DNA of 44,119 nt, from UHGV virus genome UHGV-0175781. One strand, written 5' to 3'. Under the pieces are notes generated by a model. The model searched no databases. It saw nothing but the letters and a program-made list of their open reading frames with translations, and had not been told where the DNA came from. Of this stretch, positions 1,551 through 40,403 are shown piece after piece. The DNA is from a virus. A program made the translations under genes and the position numbers. Within the stretch, counting starts at the first letter, position 1. Every line of letters begins with the position of its first letter.

Positions 1551-1597
1551 ATCACTGTCTCCGGGTATTAAAAAGGGCGTCCAAACCGGACACCCTC

Positions 1598-1626
1598 AAT
1601 ATAATGCAACCAATACGGTTATGCAA
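1598..1626 (-). promoter_or_regulatory. putative sigma70-like promoter (-35 TTGCAT, 17-bp spacer, -10 TATATT) upstream of gene 1299..1550
   Basis: read on minus strand; -35 lies inside an ATTGGTTGCAT motif, a second motif copy is in the spacer. Confidence 0.35.
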
Positions 1627-1631
1627 CCAAT

Positions 1632-1955
1632 TTACGAATAAAAATTTGGGTCGCGCGCAACGTCTACCAGATACAGGTTACTAATGCGGTTGCCATAGTG
1701 CCCTGGCGTGCGCTGGCGACACACAACGGCGTAGCCTGGAGGGATTGTATTGCCTGTCGCGATAATCCACGCCACGCGCGCTCCAGACAGCGTCTTGCCG
1801 TTGCACTCGATGCGCGTGCCACCATCGGCAGTGTTAAGGTTGCCGATCTTGCAGCCTGTGGATTTCAGGCGAATGACGCCGGTCTTGCTGTCGTAGGAAA
1901 AAAGCTGATTGGTCATTGCCACGGAAAAGTCGATGGCTTCGAATGTAGTATTCAT
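1632..1955 (-). CDS. HNH_3-like homing endonuclease-like protein, possibly degenerate
   Basis: 107 aa; pattern GK..ARVAW..TG...P.GY.VV....P...GNRISNLYLV resembles HNH_3 endonucleases but the usual His-Asp positions are replaced by CRQ. Confidence 0.4.
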   Translation of the reverse strand: MNTTFEAIDFSVAMTNQLFSYDSKTGVIRLKSTGCKIGNLNTADGGTRIECNGKTLSGARVAWIIATGNTIPPGYAVVCRQRTPGHYGNRISNLYLVDVARDPNFYS

Positions 1956-2647: not shown

Positions 2648-4068
2648 TTGCGCGCCTTTTTAGCTTTCATGTATTCCATCAAGTCGTCCTGAATATCTCG
2701 CTTACTGTCGCGACGCTCGGCGACCAGTTCGTCCAGTGTCCCGCGCGCCTGGATAATATAGACGAATACTGGACGGGGGTGTCCGGCTTGCATCTGGCGA
2801 ACCGGCCCTATACGCTCCACGATCTGCGAAAAGTGCTCAAAGTTCCAGGTATCGGAGAAGATAGCAAGGTGGTGCCCGCCATCCTGCAGGTTGAGGCCGT
2901 GACCCGCCGAGGCAGGGTGCGCAAACATGATGGGGATCTCGCCCCTATTCCACGCTTCCATATCCTTATTGCCCTGCTTGCCCTTGCCCAACGCAACGCC
3001 GTGCGGGAATTTCTTCTTGAGACGCGCCAGATCATGCTTGTATTGGTACGCGACGAGCAACGGTGCGCCGTTCAACTCCTCCGCGATACTTTCCAGCGCG
3101 TCCAGTTTAGCGTCGTGAATTTTCACCCATTCGTCGGTCCGTTCGCCGTCTTCGTCGACCTTATACACGGCCCCGGAAGCAAGCTGAAGGCACTTAATGG
3201 TCTTCGAAGCAGCGTTCGCCGCCTCCACCGTTCCGCTTTCCAGTTCGGCAAATAGCTCGCTTTCAAACTGGTCGTAGATCTTGCGGGCTTTCTTCGGCAG
3301 GTCCACAACAACCGGCGTATAGATTGGCTTGTCACATCCGAAGTATTCAGCCGCATCAACGGTGAGCGATACGTCAGACAGGCGTTGTTGTATTTCTTTC
3401 TCGGAGTTCTTAAGCGGGGCGTGCTGCATAGTAAAGCTGCCAGGCTTAACAGGCTTGCTAATAAACCAGCGATCAGTGAATGCCTTATAACTACTGCCGA
3501 GGCGTTCGCCGCCGTCGACAAACCACGTCTGACCCCACAGGTCTTTCAGTCCGTTTGGTGCGGGTGTGCCGGTCAGGTTAATCCAGCGCTTGACGTGCTT
3601 ATGTGCGATCGCTGCCAGCGCACGGGCACGCTTACTTCCCTGCTTGCTTCGATAACCTTTCAGCTTAGTGGATTCATCGGCAACAACGACCGTAAAGGGC
3701 CACGCATCGCCGTAATAGTCAACCAGCCACTCAACTACATCATAGTTAACACAAACTACGTTAGCGCCGCTCTCAAGCGCGGCTATACGGTCTTTTTCAG
3801 ACCCGGTGCCGTCTACTACCAGCAAGGCGGGGAATCGCCATTTTTCCTGTTCCGGGGGCCATGTGCCAGATGCAACGCGCAGCGGGGCCAGCACCAGTAC
3901 GCGGTCCTCCTGGTTGGACAGGATACCGGTCTGGAACATTTTATTCAGCGCCCACATGGTCGCGCCGGTTTTACCCGACCCCATTGTCGCCCATATATTG
4001 CATCGCTTATGCTTGAGGATGAACGCGGTTATCAACTTCTGATATTCGCGACGTCGGAAACGTGCCAT
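2644..4068 (-). CDS. SNF2/DEAD-like superfamily 2 ATP-dependent helicase (ORF extends to GTG at 4158; ATG at 4068 preferred)
   Basis: Walker A GSGKTGAT, DExx box VVADESTKLK, C-terminal SNF2-like helicase region (PASAGHGLNLQDGG...); start at 4068 avoids overlap with the well-supported gene 4073..4297. Confidence 0.8.
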   Translation of the reverse strand: MARFRRREYQKLITAFILKHKRCNIWATMGSGKTGATMWALNKMFQTGILSNQEDRVLVLAPLRVASGTWPPEQEKWRFPALLVVDGTGSEKDRIAALESGANVVCVNYDVVEWLVDYYGDAWPFTVVVADESTKLKGYRSKQGSKRARALAAIAHKHVKRWINLTGTPAPNGLKDLWGQTWFVDGGERLGSSYKAFTDRWFISKPVKPGSFTMQHAPLKNSEKEIQQRLSDVSLTVDAAEYFGCDKPIYTPVVVDLPKKARKIYDQFESELFAELESGTVEAANAASKTIKCLQLASGAVYKVDEDGERTDEWVKIHDAKLDALESIAEELNGAPLLVAYQYKHDLARLKKKFPHGVALGKGKQGNKDMEAWNRGEIPIMFAHPASAGHGLNLQDGGHHLAIFSDTWNFEHFSQIVERIGPVRQMQAGHPRPVFVYIIQARGTLDELVAERRDSKRDIQDDLMEYMKAKKARK

Positions 4069-4072
4069 ATCT

Positions 4073-4297
4073 TTATTCCGCCTTTTTCCAGACTTCGGTT
4101 TCACTGTTCCAGTTCCTTTTTGTGGCGTCATAGTTGGTGCTGTGCCCGATGTGTACACCCGTCGCCCGGAAGCTATTAAATTTTTGCCAGCACACCGTTA
4201 ACGGCAGCGGGTTATTCATGCCCGCGATAAACCATACGCGATCGCCTGGTTTGCATTCGCCCAGTGTGGTGAGTCGATAATGTTCTTTCATCGTCAT
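4073..4297 (-). CDS. hypothetical protein
   Basis: 74-aa ORF with GGAGA SD directly upstream of ATG 4297. Confidence 0.6.
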   Translation of the reverse strand: MTMKEHYRLTTLGECKPGDRVWFIAGMNNPLPLTVCWQKFNSFRATGVHIGHSTNYDATKRNWNSETEVWKKAE

Positions 4298-4303
4298 GTC
4301 TCC

Positions 4304-4327
4304 AAAAAATGGCGGGACAAGCCCGCC
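4304..4327 (-). terminator. hairpin (GGCGGG-loop-CCCGCC) plus T6 on minus strand; intra-operon attenuator-like
   Basis: seen in sequence between genes 4335..4508 and 4073..4297; contains one GGCGGGACAA iteron-like unit. Confidence 0.35.
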
Positions 4328-4334
4328 GTATTAA

Positions 4335-4508
4335 TTATTTTTGCTCTGCTCGGTAGCGGCGCTGCCGTTCGCGCTCTTTTTTATTGCGGCACGATTTGCA
4401 CTCTGCCCGATACCCGTCCGGGCTTCGCGCAGTCTTACCGGTGTATTTATGGAACTGGGACAGCGGTTTAACGCAGCCGCAATTACTGCAACGTTTTTCT
4501 TCAACCAT
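4335..4508 (-). CDS. small zinc-ribbon-like protein with basic C-terminus (probable start at internal ATG; ORF extends to 4580)
   Basis: CSNCGC...C..C cysteine pattern followed by KKERERQRRYR; GAGGA SD before the internal ATG. Confidence 0.45.
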   Translation of the reverse strand: MVEEKRCSNCGCVKPLSQFHKYTGKTARSPDGYRAECKSCRNKKERERQRRYRAEQK

Positions 4509-4548
4509 TTCTAAAATCCTCGATAGTGCTAACCGGCCCACTATACCG

Positions 4549-4827
4549 CTACGCGACCAACTCAGCAACCAATAAATCACAGTCTGCTATGTTGTCGATA
4601 ACGCGAACGTCCGCACCGCGGCGGGCCATTCGCTCATGTTCTCGTATCTGGTGCGGCTTCGGTTTTCCTCCGGGGCGCTTCACTTCGACGAACACTATTT
4701 TGCCGTTGATGATGATAATCAGATCGGGCGCACCCGCGCGCCCCTCCCATGCCACTTTACGGCAGAATCCGCCTACGGCTTTAACCAACTTCATAAGGTG
4801 ACTTTGGATCTTGCCTTCTGGTGTCAT
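4549..4827 (-). CDS. VRR-NUC domain nuclease (PD-(D/E)xK fold)
   Basis: 92 aa; GAPDLIII...GKIVFVEVKRPGG matches the VRR-NUC D...E.K core. Confidence 0.7.
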   Translation of the reverse strand: MTPEGKIQSHLMKLVKAVGGFCRKVAWEGRAGAPDLIIIINGKIVFVEVKRPGGKPKPHQIREHERMARRGADVRVIDNIADCDLLVAELVA

Positions 4828-5015
4828 TTGGTTTGCAATTCCACGTTACGCAGGCGGAGGTCTACCGACACATCAGATCGACCGGTCAGCGCCAGCGCCA
4901 GGTTTTCAGGAGTAACAAGTGCCGTAATGGTCTTGCCACGTTCCAGTCTAATGACGATTCGAATCTCGTCATTGTCCGTCGCGCCCGCGCGCATTATGCT
5001 CATTTCTGCTTTCAT
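4824..5015 (-). CDS. hypothetical protein (start at internal ATG; ORF extends to 5060 but would overlap polymerase stop)
   Basis: ORF track; internal Met 16 placed just downstream of the polymerase stop at 5020. Confidence 0.45.
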   Translation of the reverse strand: MKAEMSIMRAGATDNDEIRIVIRLERGKTITALVTPENLALALTGRSDVSVDLRLRNVELQTK

Positions 5016-5019
5016 AATA

Positions 5020-7311
5020 TTATTTCCTGTACCTGTACATAATGTCGCCTTCGGCGGCAAGTGGGAAGCCTTTCGCCCAAATAGGCAGGTCGCACATCAG
5101 CGCGCATAGCTCCTCGGTCGTGTAGTCGTCAGTATCCGGAACTTCGGTGATCAATTCATCGTGCACTGACAGGACGATCTCGTATCCCGCGGATTCAACG
5201 CCAGGCATGGACCATGCGAGGATATCGCGACACAGCGCCTGCACGATGTTTTCCGTCAGTTTGCCGCCGTAGGTATACTGGAAGCCCCACTGGCGCGTCG
5301 TCTGATTCTCGCCCTGGTATTTAATGCGGGTGCTGGTGCGTTTCTTGCCAGTATCTTCGTCGATCTCGGTAGTGACAGACAGCGCGATGCCCGGATAACT
5401 CATGATGCGCCCTGACGGCAACTCAATTTTAAGCCACCACCCCGCCGCGTTCGGGTCGTCGCGCTCCTCGTCGAAGGTTGGGTCATGCTTCGCCTTCGTG
5501 CGAACAATCTTAAGCGCTTTCCTGCCATCCGGGCGAACGTTCGCGCCAGCCCAGTACGCTTTGCCTGGATTGCGGATTGCACACAACACCGCGTCTTCCA
5601 GTTCGGCCCAAAAGGCTACCGTCTTCGGGTGGGCCTCACGCCACATACGTTTGATCGCGTCACACGTCAACCACACGTTTTTCGGCAGTATATAAGTTGG
5701 GCGCTCGTCCTTCTTGCCAGGCTTCGGCGGGCGCTTCGCTTCGTTGATTCGGGCGTACTCATAACCACGTTTCGCCGCCGCCCATATGTGGTCTGGGAAT
5801 GTGCCCTTCATCACGTCAGCCATCGCGTAAAGGTCGAGGCCCAGGTTTTTAGCGAACTGCAAGAACGCCGCAACGCCGCCGCCATAGCCTAGTCCCAATT
5901 CGCACGCCTTACCGATCTGGCGTAAGTCTTTGCGGTTGGCTTTAATGTATTCCGGGTCGAGGCCAAACATCTTACCGGCAGTTTCACAATAAATATCGCG
6001 ACCCGCCCTAAACACCATTAGCGCGGTTTTCTCGCCAGCGATCCAGGCGAGGCCACGCCCTTCCACGTTAGAATAGTCCGCTACGACAAACTTCTTTCCC
6101 TTAGCCGGAATAATGCACCCGCGAACGGTCGAGGCTGTTAACTTCGATATGTCATACGCCCAGTGTGCGGTCCCGCGTAACAGGGAGTTGATGCCGTTGG
6201 TAAGCATGTGCGACCGCACCCAAAACGCGACGTCGCTCTCGCCTTCACGGCGCTTAATCTTCCCTTCGTGGTCGTCGCTATACTCGCCGCGTGCCAGGTT
6301 TTGCGGCTGGAAGCCCTTACCGGCCCAGCGTAGCGTGCGCTTTGCCCCACCATACTGAAGACAACCACGGCGGCGACCATCGGCAGACAGCCCATTTACG
6401 AGCGGATTGTACTTAGTCGACGCCGTTGATGATGCCCCGAGGCGCATCTCGATAAGCACTTTGCCCTCGTCAGGGAAGTCTGGATCTTCAAGCAGGTCGT
6501 TAAGCGTGGATTTCTGCGCGTTGTGGATCGTGAACGCAGGCGCGAGGTCGCGCAGCGCGGGCAAGAAGTCATTGCCGGTCAGCTTACCGCCGAAGCGCTC
6601 CCAGGCTTCTTCCTTCAATTCTTCCTTATGCGCCTGCACCGCTTTGATCGCGGCGTTCGCCAGGTCAACGTCCACATAGAAGCCGCGGTCATTGATCAAC
6701 TGGTCAATAAGCAGGATTTCGTCTTCCTTCGGCGTGTTGCCCCAGTCCGGTATGCGCCAATAGACTTCCCTCATAGCGATGATATCCAACGCGGCATAGC
6801 GCAGGAATTTAGCCCACTCCTCGGGGTGCGTCTCGCGCGTGTAGCGGCGGATTTTGTAGGTCTTAGGGGTTGGCTTACAGAATCGTTTGATCAGCGCCTT
6901 GCCCGCCTTATCCTTCGCGTGCTCTGCGTCAACGCCCAACACCTGGCACTGCATATCGAGGCCACCCGGCAGCGCGTGTCGAAAGGCCATAATCATGGTG
7001 TCTTCGATCTGGCACACTGGCAGGTCAATGCCCCACTTCTCGCGAATGACCAGGCGGTCAAACAGGAGGCCGTTAGCCATCACTATTTTTGCTTTCTTGC
7101 GGGATACCCTGCGGAGCGCCTTGCGCAGTTCACGCGGCATTGTTGGGGACTCTGTGCAATCCCATGTCTGCACGCGGCCCTCGTCGATGGCGTAGGTGCA
7201 AATCATAATCTCGGTTGTTGGGTGCTCTGCGTAGGCGTATGCGCCCACTTTCTTCAGGTCCACCCCGCTAAATGTCTCGGTATCGAGAAAAAGGCGTTCG
7301 AAGTCTTTCAT
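5020..7311 (-). CDS. family A DNA polymerase (Pol I-like) with N-terminal 3'-5' exonuclease domain
   Basis: 763 aa; Exo I motif LFLDTETF; motif B K....GLGYGGG; motif C VLSVHDELITEV. Confidence 0.9.
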   Translation of the reverse strand: MKDFERLFLDTETFSGVDLKKVGAYAYAEHPTTEIMICTYAIDEGRVQTWDCTESPTMPRELRKALRRVSRKKAKIVMANGLLFDRLVIREKWGIDLPVCQIEDTMIMAFRHALPGGLDMQCQVLGVDAEHAKDKAGKALIKRFCKPTPKTYKIRRYTRETHPEEWAKFLRYAALDIIAMREVYWRIPDWGNTPKEDEILLIDQLINDRGFYVDVDLANAAIKAVQAHKEELKEEAWERFGGKLTGNDFLPALRDLAPAFTIHNAQKSTLNDLLEDPDFPDEGKVLIEMRLGASSTASTKYNPLVNGLSADGRRRGCLQYGGAKRTLRWAGKGFQPQNLARGEYSDDHEGKIKRREGESDVAFWVRSHMLTNGINSLLRGTAHWAYDISKLTASTVRGCIIPAKGKKFVVADYSNVEGRGLAWIAGEKTALMVFRAGRDIYCETAGKMFGLDPEYIKANRKDLRQIGKACELGLGYGGGVAAFLQFAKNLGLDLYAMADVMKGTFPDHIWAAAKRGYEYARINEAKRPPKPGKKDERPTYILPKNVWLTCDAIKRMWREAHPKTVAFWAELEDAVLCAIRNPGKAYWAGANVRPDGRKALKIVRTKAKHDPTFDEERDDPNAAGWWLKIELPSGRIMSYPGIALSVTTEIDEDTGKKRTSTRIKYQGENQTTRQWGFQYTYGGKLTENIVQALCRDILAWSMPGVESAGYEIVLSVHDELITEVPDTDDYTTEELCALMCDLPIWAKGFPLAAEGDIMYRYRK

Positions 7312-7478
7312 TGCTTAATCCTCACTACGGCGTCAGCGCTGCCGAACATGGAGAAGATACCGTCGGAAAGGGTTATCTCCTCGCCGTTGTTGCGAATCTC
7401 GGCAACGGTGAAATACTCGCCCAGCAATTTAGACCATACCTGCATTCCGACTTTTACTTCGCTGGCTTTAATGCGCAT
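7308..7478 (-). CDS. small hypothetical protein translationally coupled to the DNA polymerase (stop overlaps pol ATG)
   Basis: 56-aa ORF found by hand translation (below the ORF-track size cut-off); ATGA overlap with the polymerase start; AGGA SD. Confidence 0.4.
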   Translation of the reverse strand: MRIKASEVKVGMQVWSKLLGEYFTVAEIRNNGEEITLSDGIFSMFGSADAVVRIKQ

Positions 7479-7493
7479 TTTTCATTGTCCTAT

Positions 7494-7518
7494 TAAAAAG
7501 CCCGCATTAAGCGGGCTT
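7494..7518 (-). terminator. rho-independent terminator (AAGCCCGC-loop-GCGGGCTT plus T-run on minus strand)
   Basis: seen in sequence just downstream of the SSB-like gene stop at 7537. Confidence 0.55.
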
Positions 7519-7536
7519 GAATAGTGGGCTTTGCCC

Positions 7537-8259
7537 TTAACGGCGGCGACGTTTACGTGGCGCTTCGTCTTCGTCGTCGTCATCATCTTCGTCATCGCGT
7601 GGCTTACGACGTTTACGAGGTTTTTCATCTTCGTCATCGTCATCACGACGTTTTGACTTTTTGGACTTGCGTGGCACTTCATCTTCGTCGTCGTCGCCCA
7701 GGTCTTCGTCGGAGCAAGAAGATCCGCCACCGCCGAAGGCTTCGCCGTCATCGCGGAAGCGCAGACCCAAAAGACCGGCACCGAGTCCCTTGCCGTTGGT
7801 ATTGTTCCACGCCCAAATATCCAGGGACACGTTGCAATAACAACCGGAGTAGATCTCCTGGCCTTCGATCTCGTCGCCTTCTACGGTCAGACCTTGTTCA
7901 GTCTGCTTCTCGCCGAGTGACGTTTGAATGTTTGGCTGTTTGAACGATTTAGCGTTGATGTACAACATGCCTTCGAATTCTTCGGTTACTTCGTCGCGCT
8001 CGTCACCGTCGCGGACTGCGCATTCCTTAGAATCCTGGGCGTAGTGGCGGTCCATCCACTTATCAGCATTCTTCTCGGATTTCAGCTTGTCGGTGAGCAC
8101 TGCGCGCGCTGCCGCTTCCACTTTGTCCACCTGCGGATCTTCTTTATCAAGAAGAATCACTGCACGGTATGCCGGTTTTTGTCCATCCTGTTTAGGGGTA
8201 TCACGTTCCCAAATTTTAAGGAAACATACGCGCACATTTTTCAGGTTGACTTTAGCCAT
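7537..8259 (-). CDS. ssDNA-binding protein, DUF2815-like, with alternating acidic/basic C-terminal tail (ORF extends to 8280)
   Basis: core IYSGCYCNVSLDIWAWNNTNGKGLGAGLLGLRFRDDGEAFGG matches the DUF2815 phage SSB pattern; C-terminal 60 aa are blocks of DDDDEDE and PRKRRK. Confidence 0.6.
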   Translation of the reverse strand: MAKVNLKNVRVCFLKIWERDTPKQDGQKPAYRAVILLDKEDPQVDKVEAAARAVLTDKLKSEKNADKWMDRHYAQDSKECAVRDGDERDEVTEEFEGMLYINAKSFKQPNIQTSLGEKQTEQGLTVEGDEIEGQEIYSGCYCNVSLDIWAWNNTNGKGLGAGLLGLRFRDDGEAFGGGGSSCSDEDLGDDDEDEVPRKSKKSKRRDDDDEDEKPRKRRKPRDDEDDDDDEDEAPRKRRRR

Positions 8260-8349
8260 TTTCCAATTCCTCATTCTCACATGTATCGGGGTTATTATGA
8301 GCCACCCCGTTCGGCTTGGTTGCTAATCTACTTGGTTGCGCCTAAGCGG

Positions 8350-8592
8350 TCAAGCATTTTCATTAAAAAGATTTCGGGTCACGTAGTTGGTGGCGTTCTC
8401 GATCCAGCTTAGCGGCGGGCGTTCGATGTTATTTTCCACCCAATCGACGGCAACTTCGCTATAGCCGTCATCCAGCCCGCGGGTCGGATGGCGAATCATC
8501 CACGCCACCATTAACACGCCTTGCACGCAATGCAGGATAAAGCCCAGCGCGCCGAGCAAAAACATCAATAAGATTGCGAATACTTTATTCAT
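8350..8592 (-). CDS. small membrane protein
   Basis: 80 aa with N-terminal hydrophobic helix (FAILLMFLLGALGFILHCVQGVLMVAWMI). Confidence 0.5.
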   Translation of the reverse strand: MNKVFAILLMFLLGALGFILHCVQGVLMVAWMIRHPTRGLDDGYSEVAVDWVENNIERPPLSWIENATNYVTRNLFNENA

Positions 8593-10015
8593 TGCTTAAG
8601 TCCTCGTCAGTAGCTTCCGACCACGCAGGGCGAGGGTCGTCGATTGGTGCTAACACCGGTTTGGCTGGTGCGCGTGTGATTTTATCACACAGCTTCGCCC
8701 ACACTTTCGGTTTTTCGTCCTTCAGTACCTTCTCGGCATCCGTAGGGCTGAGCAATGTTTCTTTGTACATCACATCGCGCTTGATCCGGGCCTTCGTGAA
8801 GATTTCAATCACTTCGCTCTCGTCCGCCCACTTACGGATCCCTTCCCTACCGGCAACCATCTTAAGGCCCAACGATTCGCCATCGCCAGCCATGACCGCT
8901 TTGAATACCGCGGACTCGATAGCTTTGATGTGCTGGCGCATTGCGTCAAGTCCTTCATAAGCCTTGCGCAGTTCCGCCGCGCTCATAGCGCCGGGGGTGG
9001 ATTCCTTCTTGCCCCGTTTAGCACGTCTGGCAGCCTTCGGGGCTTCGCGGGCCATATTGCGGTCGTGGTTGGCGCACTCTTCCTCGGTTGCCACGCTCAC
9101 GTCGTCGCCCAGGTCTTCGTCGGTTGCCGTTGGTGGCGTCATCGTGTCGATTGCGGCCTTCGCCCGGACGCGGCACTGGTCCGCGAATCTGCACCACTGG
9201 CACGCATCAATGCTCGGTCGGAAGTCAGCGCGGGTTAGTCCCTTTTTGCCGCGTGCGTACGCATCGAGCGCGGCGATAGCGCGCTTGGACGCAAACTTCG
9301 CGAATATCTCCAGCGCTTCTACCGAAATATCCCACTCCGACGCCCCGCCGCAATACGGCTGGAAGATAACCAGGCGAACGGTCGTAATGTCGTACATAGT
9401 TTGCAGCTTGCGCAGCAGTCCGAGCGCGTACAACATAAGCTGTTTGTTCTCTTTCGCCTCGACCTTATGCCGCCCGGTCTTCAGGTCGCCAACAATCAGC
9501 ATGTACGTCCCATCGGTCTTTTTCATGACCATGACCATATCGGCAGTACCGAACGTTTTAATCCTGTTGCCGTCGATCTCGTAGCCTGAGTGAAGGACGC
9601 GGGTCAGATCGGCGCGCATCTCAAGCTGGACAAACTCCGCCACTTCGAGGAGCGGTCGCCAGTGGTCGATGTACGCGTCGCACTGTTTCACCATGTCGTC
9701 GTTGACCAGTACGCCGCCTTTCGGTGCTTTAGGGTGTGCCTTTACTGGCCCCTTGCCTTCGTTCTCGACGTAGCACCCTTTATACGTCTTCGCGGTTATC
9801 AGCTTCTCACCGGCGATAATGCGGTTTAGCACCACCTCAGATACGGTGTGCATACTCGTACCGTTAATCGCGGCTTGCCCGGATTCGTTCGGGATATCTT
9901 TTTCCACCACCAGGGCGGCAGGGCAACCCATCCATTTTTTAGCACCGGATGGGCCAAGTAATGAGTGTTCCGTATTGCTACCGGATTGCGTTTTACGTTT
10001 TGGTTTAATCGCCAT
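8585..10015 (-). CDS. PD-(D/E)xK Cas4/RecB-like exonuclease (DUF2800-like)
   Basis: 476 aa; N-terminal LLGPSGAKKWMGCP, VGDLKTG motif, C-terminal cysteine cluster CQWCRFADQC typical of Cas4/AddB-type nucleases. Confidence 0.7.
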   Translation of the reverse strand: MAIKPKRKTQSGSNTEHSLLGPSGAKKWMGCPAALVVEKDIPNESGQAAINGTSMHTVSEVVLNRIIAGEKLITAKTYKGCYVENEGKGPVKAHPKAPKGGVLVNDDMVKQCDAYIDHWRPLLEVAEFVQLEMRADLTRVLHSGYEIDGNRIKTFGTADMVMVMKKTDGTYMLIVGDLKTGRHKVEAKENKQLMLYALGLLRKLQTMYDITTVRLVIFQPYCGGASEWDISVEALEIFAKFASKRAIAALDAYARGKKGLTRADFRPSIDACQWCRFADQCRVRAKAAIDTMTPPTATDEDLGDDVSVATEEECANHDRNMAREAPKAARRAKRGKKESTPGAMSAAELRKAYEGLDAMRQHIKAIESAVFKAVMAGDGESLGLKMVAGREGIRKWADESEVIEIFTKARIKRDVMYKETLLSPTDAEKVLKDEKPKVWAKLCDKITRAPAKPVLAPIDDPRPAWSEATDEDLSNE

Positions 10016-10203
10016 TATTCCACCCTTGAAAACTGAGCAATGTAATATTCATGTTTAACCCCAGCCCGCTTCGCGGCTTCGTTCATGGTAGCCGCCAGTC
10101 CTCTGGCTTGAGTCCAGCAGCAATTCCAGTTCTGATTCATAACGATTTCCGGTTGCTCGTCGCCGGTAATACGGCAACGAAATAAAACAAAGAATATAGC
10201 CAT
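10015..10203 (-). CDS. hypothetical protein
   Basis: 62-aa ORF with GGGAGA SD; stop overlaps downstream ATG (TAATG). Confidence 0.5.
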   Translation of the reverse strand: MAIFFVLFRCRITGDEQPEIVMNQNWNCCWTQARGLAATMNEAAKRAGVKHEYYIAQFSRVE

Positions 10204-10455
10204 TTATTTTGTCTCCCAGCGGTCAATTGTTTTTGCTTCGGATGCAACTGCAAAGCGAACATATTCCAGATTGGAGTCCGCCCAAATAAAAAAGTCGGGG
10301 TTAGTAAAGGTGGTGCGCTTAATTTGCGCGGGGGTGTTACGGCGTTTATCTATTACGGCAACGCGTGACTGAAAGCTGCCGATGCGTTCGAATAGCCAAT
10401 AGTACGGGCGCTGGTCGCGGGAATCCACCGCCTCGATTAGCGTGAAGCGTGCCAT
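10204..10455 (-). CDS. hypothetical protein
   Basis: 83-aa ORF with AGAGGA SD. Confidence 0.55.
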   Translation of the reverse strand: MARFTLIEAVDSRDQRPYYWLFERIGSFQSRVAVIDKRRNTPAQIKRTTFTNPDFFIWADSNLEYVRFAVASEAKTIDRWETK

Positions 10456-10467
10456 TGTCTCGTCCTC

Positions 10468-10495
10468 TAAAAATAGGCCCGCAGATTAGCGGGCC
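10468..10495 (-). terminator. hairpin (GGCCCGC-AGATTA-GCGGGCC) plus T-rich run on minus strand, after the first early gene
   Basis: seen in sequence between 10504 and 10455. Confidence 0.4.
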
Positions 10496-10503
10496 GGATA
10501 ATA

Positions 10504-11043
10504 TTAGTCTTCCAGTTCGAAATAGGTTTCGACGATTTCTTTCAGGTCTTTGTGGAAGTCTTCTACGTCGTCATCTTCCAGTTTAGCGATTGATTTGATC
10601 TCGAACGCTTCCAGCAGGTCGTCGAATTCGTCGTTCGCATCGTCGTCATCGCCACCGGCAATAATCGCGGCATACTGTTTGATTTCGTCGCGCATCTCTG
10701 CCAGCGGGTCGGCATCTTTCTTACCTTTGCCTTTCGCTGGTGCTTTTTTACCCTTCGCCGGTTTTTCGTCTTCGTCATCCTCGTCGTCATCCTCTACGAC
10801 TTCTTTTTTAGCCTTACCTTTAGACTTGGTTTCTTTTGCCGCGCCTTTTTTCGTTTTAGGCGTATCTTCGACTTCGTCCTGATCGTAGTCGTCTTCGACT
10901 TCAGTCTCCGGCTTGGCCTTGCCCTTCTTAGCAGTGCCGTTTGCTTTTGGGTCTACGGCAGCGCCAACAGTTTCATAATGTTTAGCGATGGTTTCCAGTG
11001 CTACTACGCCGCGAGTAATCAGGTTTATGAATTGTTCCAACAT
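10504..11043 (-). CDS. highly charged, low-complexity early protein (acidic blocks alternating with lysine-rich blocks)
   Basis: 179 aa; first gene downstream of the near-consensus leftward promoter; GGAGA SD. Confidence 0.6.
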   Translation of the reverse strand: MLEQFINLITRGVVALETIAKHYETVGAAVDPKANGTAKKGKAKPETEVEDDYDQDEVEDTPKTKKGAAKETKSKGKAKKEVVEDDDEDDEDEKPAKGKKAPAKGKGKKDADPLAEMRDEIKQYAAIIAGGDDDDANDEFDDLLEAFEIKSIAKLEDDDVEDFHKDLKEIVETYFELED

Positions 11044-11248: not shown

Positions 11249-11277
11249 TTGACACCTTGCGGTTTTAGGTGTAGTTT
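11249..11277 (+). promoter_or_regulatory. putative rightward promoter (-35 TTGACA, 17-bp spacer, weak -10 TAGTTT)
   Basis: seen in sequence upstream of gene 11309..11638. Confidence 0.3.
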
Positions 11278-11308
11278 CGTTGGTCATCAACCAACCGGAG
11301 ACAGAATA

Positions 11309-11638
11309 ATGAATATCAACGACGCAATCGAAATGTTAACGAAGACTGTTTGCAGTGAGACAAGCCGGTCATGGGCGTATACCGATGCCGTGGGTGCGGT
11401 GCTATTTGAAATCGAACGTCTGCGACTTACCGAAAAAGAATTGCGCGCCAGGCTGGAATTGCTCAACGGTACGGCGGCGAGCAAGCTGCAGAAGCACAAT
11501 GAAGAAATGGAAGAATACAAAAAACAGGTTATCCGTTTGCGCGCCGAGGGCAAATCTTGGGCGATGATTGCCGAGTTGACCGGAATTAATCAGAGCACAG
11601 TGCGCTCCTGGGTACGCAATAATAAAACTTCCAAATAA
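11309..11638 (+). CDS. HTH DNA-binding protein (candidate regulator or replication helper; ORF extends to 11249)
   Basis: C-terminal helix-turn-helix GKSWAMIAELTGINQSTVRSWV; GGAGA SD before ATG 11309. Confidence 0.6.
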   Translation: MNINDAIEMLTKTVCSETSRSWAYTDAVGAVLFEIERLRLTEKELRARLELLNGTAASKLQKHNEEMEEYKKQVIRLRAEGKSWAMIAELTGINQSTVRSWVRNNKTSK

Positions 11639-11642
11639 GGCT

Positions 11643-13913
11643 ATGACCATGAGTTTAATTAAATTCGCCGTAACAAGACCCGCTAAAAAAGGCGAAAAAG
11701 CCAGGGCGGAAAACTTCCAGATGACTACCGAAGAGTTTTTCGAATTTATCAATGATGCGAAAGAAATCTCCTCGGTGCATATCAACAAGACGGAAGATAA
11801 AGCCGAGTATGCGCGCCGCAAGCGTAAGGCCGACGGCATCGTGGCGTATACCAGTGACGGATTGCGTCGTAAGACCAGTGCGGTGGACCGCTCGATCCTG
11901 TTCTTCGATATTGACCGCACCGACACCCGCACCCTACGCCGCTGCCGTAAGGCGTTCATTGACGCGGGTCTTGAACACGTATTTCACACCACAACCGGCG
12001 ACCGTCACCCACTGAAAGGTGGAACACGTTGCGCTCGCTTCCTGGTGTTGACGGACAAGCCTGTACCGGCTGAAGACCTGGGACGCGCCCAGTATGCCCT
12101 GTTAGCCCAACTGGGTCTGTCAGATGTGGACTTCGACGATTGCACGAAAGACACAAACCGCCTGATGTACCTGCCACACCAGCAGTCTGTAATAAAGTGT
12201 CATTACGGCAAACGTGCCCGCGTCCGTCGTCTGCTTCGCCTGGCGGATAAGCTGGGGGTGGATAAAGAGGAAGTACGCCGCGAACTAACCAAGGGAGACG
12301 ACGAAGTGGCGGACGGCATTCTGGACTGGTGCTTCCAGGCAGGATTCGAACCACTGTCGTCCGGGCGTGGTTATGAGGTGCCGTGCCCGAACGAACATCT
12401 GCACAGCGGCGAAGGGTCCACCGCCATAATGGTTAAGGATGGCGAGATCCGTTTCAAGTGTATGCACACCGGAAACGAGTGTTGCTCGGAACTGAACAGA
12501 CACCAGCACCTGGCGCTACGTCTTATCGGGATCCCGGACCACCTGAACGTCGAGCCACACAATATGTCCCGTAAGCAAATCGCCGCCATCCTTCCGGGGC
12601 TGGACGACGAGGAAGTGGAGTCGTGCTATGAACATATTGTTGATGCGGTTGGCGACGGCGAAGAATACGGCGTGTGCACCGATGCGGATCTGGATAACGA
12701 GCCGGTTGCGCTGTTCAGTAAGCACGACCCGATCATCGAGGGGTTGATTAACTTTAAATCGACCTGGTACATGGCTGGCGAGTCGAATATCGGTAAGTCT
12801 TTCTATGTGCTTGGGCAGATGGGCGCGGTTGCCGCCGGTATTCCGTTTGGCGGTGCGAAGGTCGTCCAGTCTCATTGCTTCTATTTCGACGCGGAAGGTG
12901 GCGAAGCCTCCAACCAGCGCAAAGAAGCATTGCAGATTAAATACGAGCACGACCTGGACAAGCTGCACATTATCGACCTGCAATCACGCGGCTGGGATAT
13001 CACAAGCAAGTCCGGCTTGCGTGAAGTTATCAGCTTCATCAATCGCACCGCTAACGGTGAACCTGTTGGCCTGGTGGCGTTCGACTCACTCAACCAGACT
13101 GTTGCGCTGCGGTCCGCCGATGCTAAACCGTTTGACGAGAACAACGCCAGCGATATGGGTGAAGTGGTCAAAGCGCTGAAAGCCATTGCGGAAAATACAG
13201 GTGGCAGTGCGGGCGTCATCCACCACCCGGCGAAGGGTGCAAACGGCAGCAGAACCCCACGCGGGTCCGGCGCGCTGCATGGTGCTGTCGATTCAGCGTT
13301 CTTCCTGGAACAGCCGGACGACAACCAGCCCGGGCAATTGAACCTGTATCATGAGAAGTCACGTAACGGCATCAAGCAAGCGCCGCGCGGCTTCGTCCTG
13401 CTCAAGTGCAAGGTGAAGGTAGATCTCCGCAAGTCAGAAGCGTTCGAGGCGCACCAGTCCACCAGCACTGGGCCAGACTTCGGCGACGTGGTTGCCGGAT
13501 GGGACGTCAAGCCGATTGCCTCCACGCCTCGCGACGAGACTCTCTACCTCGTACCGGTTGCCCTGGCACCGTTCGCTATAGAACAGGCGAAGGCAGCAGG
13601 CAAGGCCGCGGTTAAGGAAGAGAACACCGCCGGACCGCGCAACGAAAAAGAGAAAGTGCTTTATGCGGCCCTGGAAAAACTGATGGAAGATAACCCGGAC
13701 CATACTGGATTCAGTAAATCGGCAATTGTCCGCCAGGCCGGACTCGCGAAAGGTGGCACATCGACGAAGGCAATCGACGATATGGTCGAGCGCGGCGTAC
13801 TCGGTTTTTATACAGATCCGCACACTGGGGCCATCTATGGGTCGTCGAATATCGTCATCAAAACGAATATACCCATCACGCTTTCGGCGACCGATGACGA
13901 CCTGAAAGATTAA
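11643..13913 (+). CDS. DNA primase/helicase (AEP-type primase-like N-terminus, zinc-binding region, C-terminal RecA-fold ATPase)
   Basis: 756 aa; LFFDIDR acidic motif; Cys/His cluster CPNEHLHSGEGST...CMHTGNECC; Walker A GESNIGKS; Walker B LVAFDSL. Confidence 0.75.
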   Translation: MTMSLIKFAVTRPAKKGEKARAENFQMTTEEFFEFINDAKEISSVHINKTEDKAEYARRKRKADGIVAYTSDGLRRKTSAVDRSILFFDIDRTDTRTLRRCRKAFIDAGLEHVFHTTTGDRHPLKGGTRCARFLVLTDKPVPAEDLGRAQYALLAQLGLSDVDFDDCTKDTNRLMYLPHQQSVIKCHYGKRARVRRLLRLADKLGVDKEEVRRELTKGDDEVADGILDWCFQAGFEPLSSGRGYEVPCPNEHLHSGEGSTAIMVKDGEIRFKCMHTGNECCSELNRHQHLALRLIGIPDHLNVEPHNMSRKQIAAILPGLDDEEVESCYEHIVDAVGDGEEYGVCTDADLDNEPVALFSKHDPIIEGLINFKSTWYMAGESNIGKSFYVLGQMGAVAAGIPFGGAKVVQSHCFYFDAEGGEASNQRKEALQIKYEHDLDKLHIIDLQSRGWDITSKSGLREVISFINRTANGEPVGLVAFDSLNQTVALRSADAKPFDENNASDMGEVVKALKAIAENTGGSAGVIHHPAKGANGSRTPRGSGALHGAVDSAFFLEQPDDNQPGQLNLYHEKSRNGIKQAPRGFVLLKCKVKVDLRKSEAFEAHQSTSTGPDFGDVVAGWDVKPIASTPRDETLYLVPVALAPFAIEQAKAAGKAAVKEENTAGPRNEKEKVLYAALEKLMEDNPDHTGFSKSAIVRQAGLAKGGTSTKAIDDMVERGVLGFYTDPHTGAIYGSSNIVIKTNIPITLSATDDDLKD

Positions 13914-13988
13914 TTTTTGCGCGCATTGGTTGCCGGTATGGGAATTCCCATATCGCTAAGAGATTAATTTTTGCGCGCATTGGTTGCC
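13907..13988. repeat. two 28-bp direct repeats (AGATTAATTTTTGCGCGCATTGGTTGCC) flanking a 14-bp perfect palindrome ATGGGAATTCCCAT
   Basis: seen in sequence; first repeat overlaps the primase/helicase stop codon; a third partial copy (CGCATTGGTTGCC) at about 14011. Confidence 0.7.
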
Positions 13989-14071
13989 ATTTTGAGTGTT
14001 TTTAGCTGGTCGCATTGGTTGCCGTGTGATGTAAATATAATGCATAGTTATGCAATAAAACTGCATAAACC

Positions 14072-14231
14072 AAACGGGACAAAAAGCGGGACAAACAGGA
14101 GGCGGGACAAAGCGGGACAGCACCCCTGTCCCGCCAGTGCTGCCGCGGCTTCCAGAGGAGCGGGACAGCGGGACAGCACCCCAGTCTTTCAGACTAGACG
14201 GGGGGTCTGGCACCCCCCTCGTCTGAGACTG
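14072..14231. repeat. iteron array copy 1: at least 7 GCGGGACA(R) units (one inverted pair) followed by a ~50-bp bulged hairpin
   Basis: seen in sequence; about 85% identical to 30330..30491; flanked by CTGCATAAA boxes and an AT-rich tract. Confidence 0.8.
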
Positions 14232-14390
14232 CATAAAATCCAGGATTGCAAAATACACGGCAGCATGTTGTGGATTGCGGTCGTCACTGAACTAGGCAAC
14301 CAATACGAGTTGCAGAATGGTGGGTGAGAAATGCCGTTTGCAGTCACAACTGATAGCGATCAACTTTTTCATGCGCGTGATTAATATTGG

Positions 14391-14419
14391 TTGCATTCGC
14401 GCCAGCACCCTGCTAGATT
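14391..14419 (+). promoter_or_regulatory. putative promoter (-35 TTGCAT within ATTGGTTGCAT, 17-bp spacer, -10 TAGATT)
   Basis: seen in sequence about 30 bp upstream of gene 14448. Confidence 0.4.
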
Positions 14420-14447
14420 GGTTGCACACCAACAAGAGGACTGAACA

Positions 14448-14714
14448 ATGGCACACAAAGACCTGGTAGACGAATTGATTGAACTGCTCGAGGCTGAGGA
14501 CAATGAGGACCTTCAAGAGAGCGCGGAACACGAAGACCTGGCAGACGTATTGCTTGAACTGATCGAGGCTGAGAAAAATGCGGACCTTAAAGCGCGTGCG
14601 GCGCACATACTCGGCAACTTCAAGAAAGAGCACCGTTACGAAGCTATGCGCGTCTCGGCGCAAGAAGCGCTGATTAATTTCCTGAATAGCGTAACCATCA
14701 CGAAGAAGGACTGA
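14448..14714 (+). CDS. small acidic protein with internal tandem duplication
   Basis: 88 aa; strong SD AAGAGGA; two ~23-aa repeat units (DLVDELIELLEAEDNEDL / DLADVLLELIEAEKNADL). Confidence 0.6.
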   Translation: MAHKDLVDELIELLEAEDNEDLQESAEHEDLADVLLELIEAEKNADLKARAAHILGNFKKEHRYEAMRVSAQEALINFLNSVTITKKD

Positions 14715-14717
14715 ACG

Positions 14718-15011
14718 ATGAAAAAATTAATCTGGAATTACGCGATGGCGATGGCGAAGTTGGCAGAAGCGCGCCACCACGACGGCAACATACCAGAAGC
14801 CCAGCATGAGGCCGTCATGGCCTGGCATGCGATCACGAACGCGAGTGAGGGCCAGAGGGACCCCAGAGCGCTGCGCATGGCTATCCAGGCCTACGCGCTT
14901 GCATTCTCTCGCGAGCGCCTGGCGTATCGCTTCAGGATTGGCGAGACGGCAGTGACAAACGTCGCCCGGATTGCAGCACAACGCGAGCTAGTCGCCCAGC
15001 TTGCGAAATAA
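14718..15011 (+). CDS. hypothetical protein
   Basis: 97-aa ORF with GAAGGA SD. Confidence 0.55.
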   Translation: MKKLIWNYAMAMAKLAEARHHDGNIPEAQHEAVMAWHAITNASEGQRDPRALRMAIQAYALAFSRERLAYRFRIGETAVTNVARIAAQRELVAQLAK

Positions 15012-15020
15012 GGGGCCAAA

Positions 15021-15290
15021 ATGGACCGTAGGCGAGCTAAACAGCTTTCGTGGTACATTCCCCTCCACTGCATACGAATATGGGCTGAGAATGCGATTGA
15101 GGGCGATTCTGTGTTCTGGAGCTACCGCGATGATGTGAAGCCATTAACGCAGACCCGCTACTTGCGCCAGTTCGCCAGGGAGCATGGGTTATCCATAAAA
15201 ACGTCCTTGCAACCAATTGGCATTCGTATTACATTACGCCGGAAGCCCGCCGTTGAGCGGGTAGGCAAACACTGGAGACTGAGAAAATGA
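15021..15290 (+). CDS. hypothetical protein
   Basis: 89-aa ORF with AAGGGG SD. Confidence 0.5.
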   Translation: MDRRRAKQLSWYIPLHCIRIWAENAIEGDSVFWSYRDDVKPLTQTRYLRQFAREHGLSIKTSLQPIGIRITLRRKPAVERVGKHWRLRK

Positions 15291-15505
15291 CACCAGCACT
15301 AATGGCGGGATTCTCGCAGAAGTTTATTTCTGTTGATGCCCGCATAGCAGATTATGAGATGAACGGCATCGCCACTGTGTGCGATGGCGACACGAAAACT
15401 GTCGAAGAACTAGAAGACTGCGAGCATGACTTCGGGGAGTTTGCCGATGACCCGAACTATGATGATTACCTGGTGTGCCGCAAATGCGGCTGTGTTAAAC
15501 TTTAA
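15287..15505 (+). CDS. small cysteine-containing acidic protein
   Basis: 72-aa ORF with GGAGA SD; C-terminal CRKCGC. Confidence 0.5.
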   Translation: MTPALMAGFSQKFISVDARIADYEMNGIATVCDGDTKTVEELEDCEHDFGEFADDPNYDDYLVCRKCGCVKL

Positions 15506-15561
15506 AGGTGCCGTGGCGGCAGCATGAAAGCCATTTTCGATTAATTATGCAAGCGTGATAT

Positions 15562-15596
15562 AGTCCCAGTGAGCTAAAACTTACTGGGACTTTTTT
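15562..15596 (+). terminator. hairpin (AGTCCCAGT-12 nt loop-ACTGGGACT) plus T6, abutting the holin start codon
   Basis: seen in sequence. Confidence 0.45.
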
Positions 15597-15887
15597 ATGG
15601 ATAAGCTAAACGAGTGGCTATTCGCCCTGGCATGTCTGGCGGGGGGCTTCGTAGGCGCACGCATTCATGATGAGGCTACGAAGGGGCCGCTAAACTTCGT
15701 TTTGTATGTTGTAGTTGGCTTCCTGTGTGCCATATTTGGCGCACCGGCTATCGCTGAGTGGGCTGGTTTGTCGGGGGAGCGCACTGTCGCCGGTTTGGGC
15801 TTCGTAACTGCCATCTTCTGGATGCCAATAGCTGACCGGATCCGGGAGACAATTGCGACGCTACACCTTCCGGGGGGCGCAAAATGA
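15597..15887 (+). CDS. holin-like membrane protein (about 3 transmembrane segments)
   Basis: 96 aa; three hydrophobic stretches and a charged C-terminus; directly upstream of the endolysin. Confidence 0.6.
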   Translation: MDKLNEWLFALACLAGGFVGARIHDEATKGPLNFVLYVVVGFLCAIFGAPAIAEWAGLSGERTVAGLGFVTAIFWMPIADRIRETIATLHLPGGAK

Positions 15888-16129
15888 TTATCTCCGTCCT
15901 GTTGTTTGTTATCATCGGGGCTTCGTCCCTGTTTAACGTGTATGCGCCGTCCGTCCAGGATGGCATCTTAGGCCGGGTGCTGTATCTGTTAACGGCAATG
16001 ATCTGTCTTATTGGACTGTTGCAAACAGGAGACGTATCGGATACCACCTGGACCGCGTTAATCTGGCTGTTTGCATTGCGCACCCTGCGTAATGCTGTTT
16101 TAAATGGGGTAAAACATGCGATTCAGTGA
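15884..16129 (+). CDS. second holin/antiholin-like membrane protein
   Basis: 81 aa, mostly hydrophobic; overlaps holin stop and endolysin start. Confidence 0.5.
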   Translation: MIISVLLFVIIGASSLFNVYAPSVQDGILGRVLYLLTAMICLIGLLQTGDVSDTTWTALIWLFALRTLRNAVLNGVKHAIQ

Positions 16130-16607
16130 TAACGGTCTACGATTTACGGCAGCATGGGAGGCTTTCAGCCCGGTGCCGTATTTCGCGACCAAGAAAGAGC
16201 AGGCCCGCGGCCTGTACACCTGGGGTTATGGTCATACTGGCACTAATCCGCCACGAAGCATTACCCGCGAGGAAGCGCTGGCATTGCTCAAGCGCGATGT
16301 GGCGTATGCCGAGGGCTGGGTGAACAAATACGCACATCCGAGCATTAACCAGGCGCAATTTGACGCGCTGGTGGACCTGGTAATCAACGCCGGTCCGGGT
16401 CCGATCGTACCGGATGGCGTCGCGAATGATTTCGATGACGCGGTGCGGTTGGGCGACTGGGCGAAGGTACGTGCTACGCTGCCGCTGTTCCGCAAGCAAG
16501 GCGGGGAAGTGCTTAAGGGTCTGGTGCGCCGTGCAATCGGCAGACAGGCGTTGTTTGATGGTAAGCAGTGGGACGTTGCCGAGAAAATCGGGCGTAACGC
16601 CGCATAA
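16116..16607 (+). CDS. endolysin, GH24 lysozyme (T4 / lambda R type)
   Basis: 163 aa; WEAF...GLYTWGYGHTG matches the GH24 catalytic region; no N-terminal signal-anchor. Confidence 0.85.
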   Translation: MRFSDNGLRFTAAWEAFSPVPYFATKKEQARGLYTWGYGHTGTNPPRSITREEALALLKRDVAYAEGWVNKYAHPSINQAQFDALVDLVINAGPGPIVPDGVANDFDDAVRLGDWAKVRATLPLFRKQGGEVLKGLVRRAIGRQALFDGKQWDVAEKIGRNAA

Positions 16608-23923: not shown

Positions 23924-23989
23924 TTTTATGTCCTCATTGTTGGTGTGCAACCAATATAGCGCAACCAATTCCCGCAGTGCAAGCGAATT

Positions 23990-40402: not shown

Positions 40403-40403
40403 A

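Follow-up and report, generated by a model that had tools for sequence, protein, structure and literature searches.

Phages of the genus Dhillonvirus have several genes with reported links to bacterial defence, namely the anti-Tmn gene (SM_S22 ORF35), the Tmn trigger nmad5, the KpAvs2 trigger Ksap1 (SECphi18) and the escape loci SSB, DNA polymerase and portal. Anti-Tmn, Ksap1 and Nmad5 are small or accessory, genus-specific proteins whose activity or recognition is set by a few residues (PMC11846954, PMC11564622). Here we analyse a cluster of four small open reading frames (ORF1-ORF4) at positions 14448-15505 of the virus genome UHGV-0175781, the whole 44,119-nucleotide stretch of which is referred to as the window. 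None of the reported defence, trigger and escape genes lies in this cluster, and none of anti-Tmn, Ksap1 and Nmad5 is homologous to ORF1-ORF4. The presumed anti-Tmn homologue of the window (834-1298, minus strand, 154 aa), outside the cluster, is 83% identical to SM_S22 CDS0035, the GenBank entry that from its numbering is presumably the published ORF35. Ksap1 lies between a methyltransferase gene and a phosphatase gene in SECphi18, in the leftward operon and not in the cluster, and Nmad5 is encoded elsewhere in the genome (23159-23923, minus strand, Pfam Nmad5 E=1e-60). The window Nmad5, at 254 aa, matches the N-terminally short form described for phage SM_A8.

ORF2, ORF3 and residues 1-47 of ORF4 belong to the families of SSL-2009a gp55, gp56 and gp57 (phrog_9839, phrog_12533 and phrog_15977) and of Sodalis phage SO-1 gp50. 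The gene order ORF2-ORF3-ORF4 and its placement between helicase-primase and holin genes are the same in SSL-2009a, whereas the window adds ORF1 in front and a 25-residue C-terminal extension to ORF4, and is without equivalents of gp58-gp60. Megablast of 13900-15600 matched 158 phage records at 80-92% identity, almost all of them Escherichia phages of the genus Dhillonvirus (SSL-2009a, HK578-like, SECphi18, mckay). The window is therefore a Dhillonvirus (SSL-2009a/HK578-like) genome, and the cluster comes from a virulent E. coli siphophage of this genus. A 44,147-bp metagenomic contig is 100% identical to the window across the 5.3 kb compared.

We propose, with a probability of roughly 0.55, that the cluster is a short promoter-to-terminator operon at the boundary between replication and lysis-structural genes, coding for four small, soluble, genus-restricted proteins. 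The four plus-strand ORFs of 72-97 aa described in a preliminary description of the window were recovered at exactly the same coordinates (Table 1). As also claimed there, each has a good Shine-Dalgarno (SD) sequence: the elements AGAGGA, GAAGGA, AAGGGG and GGAGA precede the starts of ORF1 to ORF4 by 5-9 nt, with anti-SD duplex energies of -5.4 to -7.6 kcal/mol that are good but not exceptional. The first protein is indeed acidic, with an isoelectric point (pI) of 4.59 and 22 Asp and Glu versus 10 Lys and Arg residues; ORF4 has a pI of 4.1 and ORF3 a pI of 11.1. Pooled pairwise Nei-Gojobori (NG86) ratios of nonsynonymous to synonymous change (pN/pS) across about 20 distinct relatives were 0.37 for ORF1, 0.53 for ORF2, 0.26 for ORF3 and 0.36 for ORF4, with 0.11 for the holin and 0.98 for a segment of helicase-primase read in the wrong frame as controls. 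Because their ratios of 0.26-0.53 compare with 0.98 for the wrong-frame control, the four ORFs are real selected genes, all of them protein-coding and under purifying selection. Three of the four match PHROG families at E 1e-27 to 1e-57, every family being of 'unknown function'. ORF2 aligns over residues 1-97 with positions 1-101 of the 101 in phrog_9839 (E=2.7e-37) and ORF3 over its full 89 residues with phrog_12533 (E=8.7e-58), while ORF4 aligns over residues 1-46 with positions 1-46 of the 47 in phrog_15977 (E=1.4e-27), leaving residues 48-72 outside the model. The genes are thus conserved, the opposite of what the preliminary description had named as counting against it.

Arrangement and signals are in keeping with a single unit. 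The genes are co-oriented and tightly coupled, with 3 nt between ORF1 and ORF2, 9 nt between ORF2 and ORF3 and a 4-nt overlap (ATGA) between ORF3 and ORF4, and they stand directly 3' of a conserved repeat and promoter region, as had been noted before. The cluster had also been said to open the rightward transcription unit. It does not, because the helix-turn-helix (HTH) and helicase-primase genes precede it on the same strand; the cluster nevertheless looks like a unit of its own, bounded by 534 bp of conserved non-coding DNA on its 5' side and by a strong terminator at its end. The only strong terminator is the one before the holin gene, in addition to a weak internal hairpin at 14655-14673, and spacing and terminator make the sequence compatible with one transcription unit.

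ORF1 carries a tandem duplication that had been put at about 69 bp. The duplication is real and in frame, but its period is 75 nt (25 codons), 69 bp being the matching stretch quoted earlier. The nucleotide self-comparison proposed as a check, by repeat search and by Tandem Repeats Finder (14453-14592: period 75, 1.9 copies, 86% matches, no indels), confirms two 75-nt copies. The exact 88-aa protein occurs on at least nine contigs from separate samples and two assembly sources (ENA, Logan), including genomes with 26-27 single-nucleotide polymorphisms (SNPs) relative to the window, all but one in a patch of the primase gene. This recurrence excludes an artefact of assembly, as do the 13 positions at which the copies differ, since no assembler could have merged such copies or made them up. 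Relatives of ORF1 were found only in three isolate phages (mckay, CS16 and Maverick) and four protein clusters among 5.8 billion, all 62-65 aa long with the repeat unit in single copy, and the 25-codon N-terminal duplication is unique to the window's lineage. Two of these relatives, the hypothetical proteins mckay gp59 and vB_Eco_CS16 CS16C_044 (65 and 62 aa, 58-60% identity), are encoded directly 5' of ORF2 with the same bounding ribosome-binding-site repeat. Unlike them, the window has the 25-codon unit twice, and in place of the ATGA overlap of mckay and CS16 a 1-nt insertion puts the ORF1 stop in frame with ORF2. A metagenomic relative, P0019, reaches 80% identity.

The 13 differences between the two copies fall in 11 codons, 12 being nonsynonymous and one synonymous (pN/pS 3.25), whereas comparison of either copy to the one unit present in the closest relative gives the usual synonymous excess (ratios of 0.18 and 0.35). 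This contrast has a Fisher p of 0.011, and an omega of 0.3 is incompatible with the copy-to-copy changes (P=0.003). Copy 1 gained acidic and copy 2 basic residues. We take the duplication to be young, with fast change of both copies at the protein level. On both sides of ORF1, the DNA alignment reveals the sequence GAGGACTGAACAATG within 14-nt direct repeats, AGGACTGAACAATG on the left and AGGACTGAACGATG on the right, each comprising an SD sequence and an ATG. In phages without ORF1 the left copy directly precedes ORF2, which starts there. From this pattern, ORF1 is a rare cassette inserted exactly at the ribosome-binding site of ORF2, duplicating that site.

A comparative ORF map of about 20 loci, each covered from the stop codon of the primase gene to the start of the holin gene, places this cassette in a genus-wide order and marks the region as the most mosaic part between replication and lysis genes. 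The promoter region is followed by a first slot holding nothing, an ORF1-type protein of 62-65 aa or an unrelated 59-aa protein, then by ORF2 (alleles of 96, 97, 101 or 108 aa) and ORF3 (89 aa). Next comes ORF4, either short (47-50 aa) or long (69-77 aa), or another 50-aa gene, and in most relatives genes of 174-205, 46-48 and 95-108 aa then lead up to the terminator and the holin. The ORF2-ORF3 segment was matched by 157 of about 158 related phage records. ORF2 and ORF3 form a core pair present in nearly every relative examined, with ORF1 and the long ORF4 as accessory modules. The window is without the three genes (about 1 kb) that most relatives carry between ORF4 and the terminator. A six-codon ORF, ATGAAAGCCATTTTCGATTAA, at 15519-15539 retains the final 17 nt of the lost 95-108-aa gene and is a scar of the replacement that removed all three. 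The stretch at about 15428-15506, which covers the C-terminal extension of ORF4, has 0 nucleotide matches among 50,697 phage records.

ORF2 combines constant and variable parts. Its profile search gathered 120 clusters, all on phage-sized contigs (at most 46 kb), and none of these 120 has a Pfam domain or comes from beyond this group of phages. Structure prediction, which the preliminary description had proposed, gave a confident model for ORF2 and no fold match that assigns a function. The AlphaFold2 model, built from 79 sequences, is a four-helix bundle (helices 2-21, 25-43, 49-72 and 77-96) with a predicted local distance difference test score (pLDDT) of 96.5 and a predicted template modelling (TM) score of 0.88. 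Foldseek against the PDB gave a best E of 0.9 with TM below 0.45 and nothing at E<=0.001, a search of BFVD returned only the protein's own family, and a PDB profile search found nothing for ORF2. Mean column entropy is 0.61 over residues 1-14 and 0.49 over residues 52-97 (pN/pS 0.29 and 0.32), and rises to 1.76 over residues 15-51 (pN/pS 0.71). This hypervariable centre runs from the last part of helix 1 through helix 2 into the loop after it, and also holds the length differences among alleles. By eye, the invariant stretch RERLAYRFGIGETAVTNVARI resembles a sigma-70 region 4 or LuxR-type HTH; hhalign against a small, approximate sigma alignment gave a probability of 1.3% (E=0.039, 19 columns) and we rejected the match. 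We likewise rejected the C-terminus as an HTH, since AlphaFold2 places two long helices of the bundle there.

The first-slot cassette is repeatedly linked to ORF2. The two genes overlap by ATGA in several relatives, and eight protein clusters, with phage jat as an example, have the 59-aa cassette fused in frame to ORF2. Maverick has such a fusion of ORF2 with ORF1 itself. Because of these in-frame fusions and couplings, a Rosetta-stone type of evidence, the products of the cassette and of ORF2 are likely to act together. In the window, ORF1 and ORF2 share a frame with only TGA-ACG between them, where jat has CGA-ACA, and low-level UGA read-through from ORF1 into ORF2 is possible. T4 AsiA, T7 Gp2, T5 gpT5.026 and P23-45 gp39 are small phage proteins that redirect host RNA polymerase. 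ORF2 is like them all-helical and of similar size (about 90-100 aa), and, as in such systems, the -35 region of the proposed early promoters of the window contains a box, and the late promoter that we propose has an extended -10. The Foldseek search of the PDB with ORF2 gave no fold match.

ORF3 is the best conserved of the four, with 81-93% identity to the window protein across the genus and 87% mean column identity. Its model has an alpha/beta fold with a conserved arginine-rich N-terminal helix, and some of its fold neighbours are small nucleic-acid-binding domains. An exhaustive HMMER search of 1.84 billion representatives found a single genuine distant homologue, P0144, a protein of 128 aa (E=8e-5, and E=1.4e-10 when matched to phrog_12533), whose gene lies 85 bp 5' of a holin-holin-lysozyme set on an otherwise different phage contig. 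Two further candidates, P0142 and P0145, were rejected as repeat-protein artefacts, and eL20, the only PDB profile match (E about 0.3), was judged to be due to chance. In the relative IMGVR_UViG_2706795659 (2396-2662), ORF3 is disrupted, with only residues 36-89 readable and stops in the 5' part; either this phage may do without the gene, or its record may be faulty. Gene callers missed ORF3 in some metagenomic contigs.

In most relatives ORF4 has 47-50 aa and ends in EEIEETEQ. The long form, found in the window and three other clusters, has a nearly invariant tail, ELEDCEHDFGEFADDPNYDDYLVCRKCG(A/C)VKL, attached to more divergent N-terminal parts. Because it occurs in at least three different gene contexts, it did not simply result from the local deletion but is an allele in its own right, a rare one of a gene whose product usually has 47 aa. 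Residues 48-72 contain CEH...CRKCG, one CxxC (CRKC) and a CxH conserved in all four long-form sequences, which suggests a metal-binding knuckle. The match of the tail to A2L_zn_ribbon (PF08792) reached 12.7 bits against a cut-off of 22.9 (E=0.11), with one knuckle in place of two.

The signals that bound the cluster are themselves conserved. The putative promoter upstream of ORF1, with the box ATTGGTTGC in its -35 region, is nearly invariant in 18 distinct relatives, and SM_S22 has TATATT at the -10 position. The 9-mer occurs 15 times in the window, mostly in intergenic positions, against 0.56 expected, and 16 times at homologous places in SM_S22. At five sites its start lies exactly 28 nt before a -10-like hexamer and is oriented with the downstream gene, namely at the cluster, at two points in the leftward operon, at nmad5 and at a small leftward ORF of the tail region. 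It looks like a genus-wide promoter or operator box and not just an origin iteron. The cluster and nmad5 share, in addition, the 26-nt leader ATTGGTTGCACACCAACAA(T)GAGGAC; because box and leader are common to both, the cluster would belong to the temporal class of the DNA-metabolism genes. The nmad5 gene, with the same box and 26-nt leader as ORF1, is leftward and embedded among rightward head genes.

The 534-bp upstream region is conserved above many coding regions. Box-containing repeat units follow the primase stop (13902-14023), two in SSL-2009a-like genomes, three in the window and six in the relative L024. Further on, at 14072-14186, GGGACA and GCGGGACAG repeats form two GC-rich hairpins (for example GCGGGACAG...CTGTCCCGC) that are nearly invariant genus-wide; one of them, which has no T-run after it, is annotated as a terminator in phage CS16. 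At the other end of the cluster, the conserved 70-bp element holds an extended -10-like sequence, TGATATAGT (15556-15564), that overlaps the 5' arm of the terminator hairpin, and the only SD-like bases of the holin (GGGA) sit in the 3' arm. In L019, a divergent relative, the hairpin is retained and has gained one compensatory C:G pair. The element may be a combined insulator and late promoter. Rfam matches were sub-threshold and terminator-driven only.

The cluster lies between the helicase-primase and holin genes, and packaging, head and tail genes follow the endolysin (ORF map, Table 1). Directly 5' of helicase-primase, the 129-aa protein has a C-terminal HTH (HTH_23 E=3e-7; Sigma70_r4_2 E=3e-6) and is a candidate for binding either the ATTGGTTGC boxes or the origin. 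Two near-identical metagenomic variants (L009 and L010) are identical to the window in the small-gene cluster and differ from the window by 26 SNPs, 21 of them synonymous and all within a 600-bp patch of the primase gene (12764-13361) that is a recombination patch. One relative, OQ221563.1, bears the name 'Acinetobacter phage NJ01' but has the features of a typical Dhillonvirus, with about 92% identity to this region of the E. coli phage, and its host label looks doubtful. In the tail-gene block, a 72-aa ORF (40420-40638, minus strand) and a 76-aa ORF (40399-40629, plus strand) overlap, the former having a promoter of the box type and GGGGG as a strong SD; likely just one of the two is real.

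Table 1. Positions of the small-gene cluster, its signals and its neighbours in the window.
Feature	Position	Strand	Description
ORF1	14448-14714	+	88 aa, acidic; rare 65-aa family, carries the duplication
ORF2	14718-15011	+	97 aa, phrog_9839; genus-wide
ORF3	15021-15290	+	89 aa, phrog_12533; genus-wide
ORF4	15287-15505	+	72 aa; residues 1-46 phrog_15977, then C-terminal extension
In-frame tandem duplication	14450-14524 and 14525-14599	+	2 x 75 nt, 83% identical (repeat search)
Left cassette-bounding repeat	14437-14450	+	14-nt direct repeat AGGACTGAACAATG, SD and ATG
Right cassette-bounding repeat	14707-14720	+	AGGACTGAACGATG, SD and ATG of ORF2
Putative cluster promoter	14386-14425	+	box ATTGGTTGC at 14386-14394 (TTGCAT at -35), 17-nt spacer, -10-like TAGATT at 14413-18
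Second ATTGGTTGC box	14417-14425	+	overlaps -10 and +1
Conserved element	15531-15600	+	70 bp, 100% identical in at least 48 phages
Terminator hairpin	15562-15591	+	12-bp stem, then T-run, then holin ATG at 15597; fold z-score -4.7
ATTGGTTGC sites	1606-1631(-), 4565(-), 11111, 13925, 13979, 14014, 14296(-), 14386, 14417, 15209(-), 23947-23969(-), 40695(-), 43811		minus-strand sites marked (-)
Leftward DNA-metabolism operon	about 360-11040	-	ORF map
HTH gene	11249-11638	+	129 aa; ORF map
Helicase-primase gene	11643-13913	+	ORF map
Non-coding region	between helicase-primase and ORF1		534 bp, conserved
Two holins and endolysin	15597-16607	+	ORF map

The preliminary description had taken all four proteins for early host-takeover or anti-defence factors, which would inhibit host defence or machinery by direct binding. 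The proteins are small and soluble, two of them are acidic (ORF1 pI 4.6, ORF4 pI 4.1), and Dhillonviruses are known for small anti-defence or trigger proteins whose activity hinges on a few residues. The cluster also lies in the most mosaic region between replication and lysis genes, ORF2 has its hypervariable centre, and the copies in ORF1 diverged mainly by amino-acid change; ORF1, ORF2 and ORF4 are in this respect as mosaic and fast-evolving as is expected of host-interaction genes. Against such a role for all four, there was no match in PADLOC, Pfam, NCBIfam or solved anti-defence structures, and the experimentally identified anti-Tmn and Ksap1 genes sit in the leftward operon. In PADLOC nothing was found for the four proteins below E=0.18, and the sub-threshold matches in Pfam, NCBIfam and PADLOC (HEAT_2, FliL, Baculo_8kDa, A2L zinc ribbon, LmuC and pyrophosphohydrolase) were rejected as noise; that of ORF1 residues 33-79 to HEAT_2 (PF13646; 20.1 bits, E=8e-4, below the 27.7-bit gathering threshold) reflects a helical-repeat resemblance only. 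Further, ORF2 and ORF3 are atypical as anti-defence cargo, which is typically patchy, because hardly any relative is without them and ORF3 varies little across the genus (81-93% identical), and the window phage lost three neighbouring genes with no comparable replacements. We regard the idea as doubtful for the cluster as a whole. It fares better for part of it: an anti-defence or host-takeover role is plausible for ORF1, ORF2 and ORF4, and the chance that at least one of these three is a host-interaction or anti-defence factor comes somewhat short of even. For the core pair of ORF2 and ORF3, a regulatory or essential role at the boundary fits at least as well as anti-defence.

Such a boundary role could be that of a late-gene switch. 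ORF3, alone or together with ORF2, would in that case be a small activator or antiterminator that binds nucleic acid and allows RNA polymerase to read past, or to initiate at, the invariant terminator/promoter element (15531-15600), and in this way turns on lysis and morphogenesis genes. In phage lambda, late control has the layout Q - PR' - tR' - S R Rz - structural genes, and Q proteins have roughly 160-207 aa. The window is similar in that a block of small genes lies directly 5' of a conserved promoter/terminator element, followed by holin, endolysin and packaging and structural genes. The cluster sits exactly at the early/late boundary, the strong terminator shows 100% conservation across 48 or more phages, and its hairpin contains the holin SD in the 3' arm and shares the 5' arm with the extended -10. 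ORF3 itself is genus-wide and basic (pI 11.1), with its conserved arginine-rich N-terminal helix and some nucleic-acid-binding fold neighbours; its remote homologue P0144 is also immediately 5' of a holin-holin-lysozyme set in a different phage, and besides the 129-aa HTH protein no transcription regulator is listed in the annotated relatives examined. The parallel with lambda is nonetheless one of layout, ORF3 being 89 aa long. In searches for Q antiterminator and other known regulators, ORF3 had no Pfam match at E<=1, hence none to the Q families, ORF2 no relevant match and P0144 none. A search for boxA-like sites found none, most relatives have about 1 kb of other genes between ORF3 and the terminator, the synteny with lysis cassettes could be simple common descent, and the sigma-region-4-like stretch of ORF2 was not significant. 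A lambda N-like scheme, with the arginine-rich N-terminus of ORF3 and a 5-5-5 hairpin at 14418, was rejected, as no boxA was found and the hairpin is probably 5' of the transcript start. Overall we consider the late-gene switch unlikely; the broader suggestion that ORF3, possibly with ORF2, regulates transcription or lysis timing is made only tentatively. Lastly, the ORFs could be remnants that are decaying or have no function, and the duplication could be an error of assembly or sequencing, in line with the deletion or replacement scar 3' of ORF4 (the last codons of the lost gene at 15519-15539) and with gene callers skipping ORF3 in some metagenomic contigs. The recurrence of the duplication on at least nine contigs, which stem from independent samples and assemblers, the 13 differences between its copies, pN/pS well below 1 for all four genes and full-length homologues in about 150 isolates effectively refute this explanation.

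Several observations temper the proposal of a small operon with arms-race features. No significant match of any of the four proteins to a characterised family or structure was obtained in Pfam, NCBIfam, PADLOC, PDB sequence or fold searches. The temporal class is read from sequence motifs, a generic sigma-70 scan did not call the cluster promoter (3/6 and 4/6 matches), our literature search found neither a Dhillonvirus transcriptome nor an experimental account of Dhillonvirus expression timing, and in EE09 proteomics the four cluster proteins are not reported among those detected. The amino-acid excess in ORF1 after duplication is not significantly above neutrality (P=0.20), and the divergence may therefore reflect relaxed and not positive selection; the ORF2 centre, with a pN/pS of 0.71, is likewise still below 1. 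The fusions of cassette and ORF2 could be annotation or sequencing quirks in some records, though they recur in many independent clusters. The ORF3 model, from a 3-sequence alignment, is moderate (pLDDT 75.5) and its fold hits are heterogeneous.

For the promoter-to-terminator operon, we postulate the following. Transcription would be driven by the promoter with the genus-wide ATTGGTTGC box in its -35 region, and because the same box also lies 5' of nmad5 and the replication genes, the four proteins are probably made with early or middle DNA-metabolism genes, before the late genes. The first-slot cassette, be it ORF1, the unrelated 59-aa protein or nothing, would work together with ORF2, whose invariant helices 3-4 may serve a constant partner and whose hypervariable helix 2 may serve a variable one, a pattern that fits a protein in a host-phage arms race. 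ORF1 and the long ORF4 behave like arms-race cargo, and ORF1 probably works with ORF2. ORF3 would be a core factor that binds nucleic acid and may govern whether expression continues past the terminator into lysis and late genes. A bolder combination, which we think improbable, is that ORF2 is a modular specificity protein and ORF3 (phrog_12533) a new family of very small late-gene or lysis-timing regulators. ORF2 would then have a constant two-helix core, a hypervariable helix and interchangeable N-terminal modules (ORF1-type, 59-aa beta-type or none). These modules could stand alone, be coupled to it in translation, be fused to it or be linked to it by UGA read-through, with pressure from host defences tuning the whole. 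ORF3 would act at the invariant overlapping terminator and promoter before the holin gene.

Taken as it stands, the cluster is an ordinary phage ORFan operon with some evolutionary curiosities, and its value lies in prioritising experiments and not in a new principle. Dhillonviruses are common coliphages in phage-therapy and defence-system research (SECphi18, SECphi4, BASEL Bas14-18), and the split between core genes (ORF2, ORF3) and swappable genes (ORF1, ORF4 and the lost downstream genes) gives a short target list: the swappable genes are candidates for defence screens, and the core genes for the early-to-late switch.

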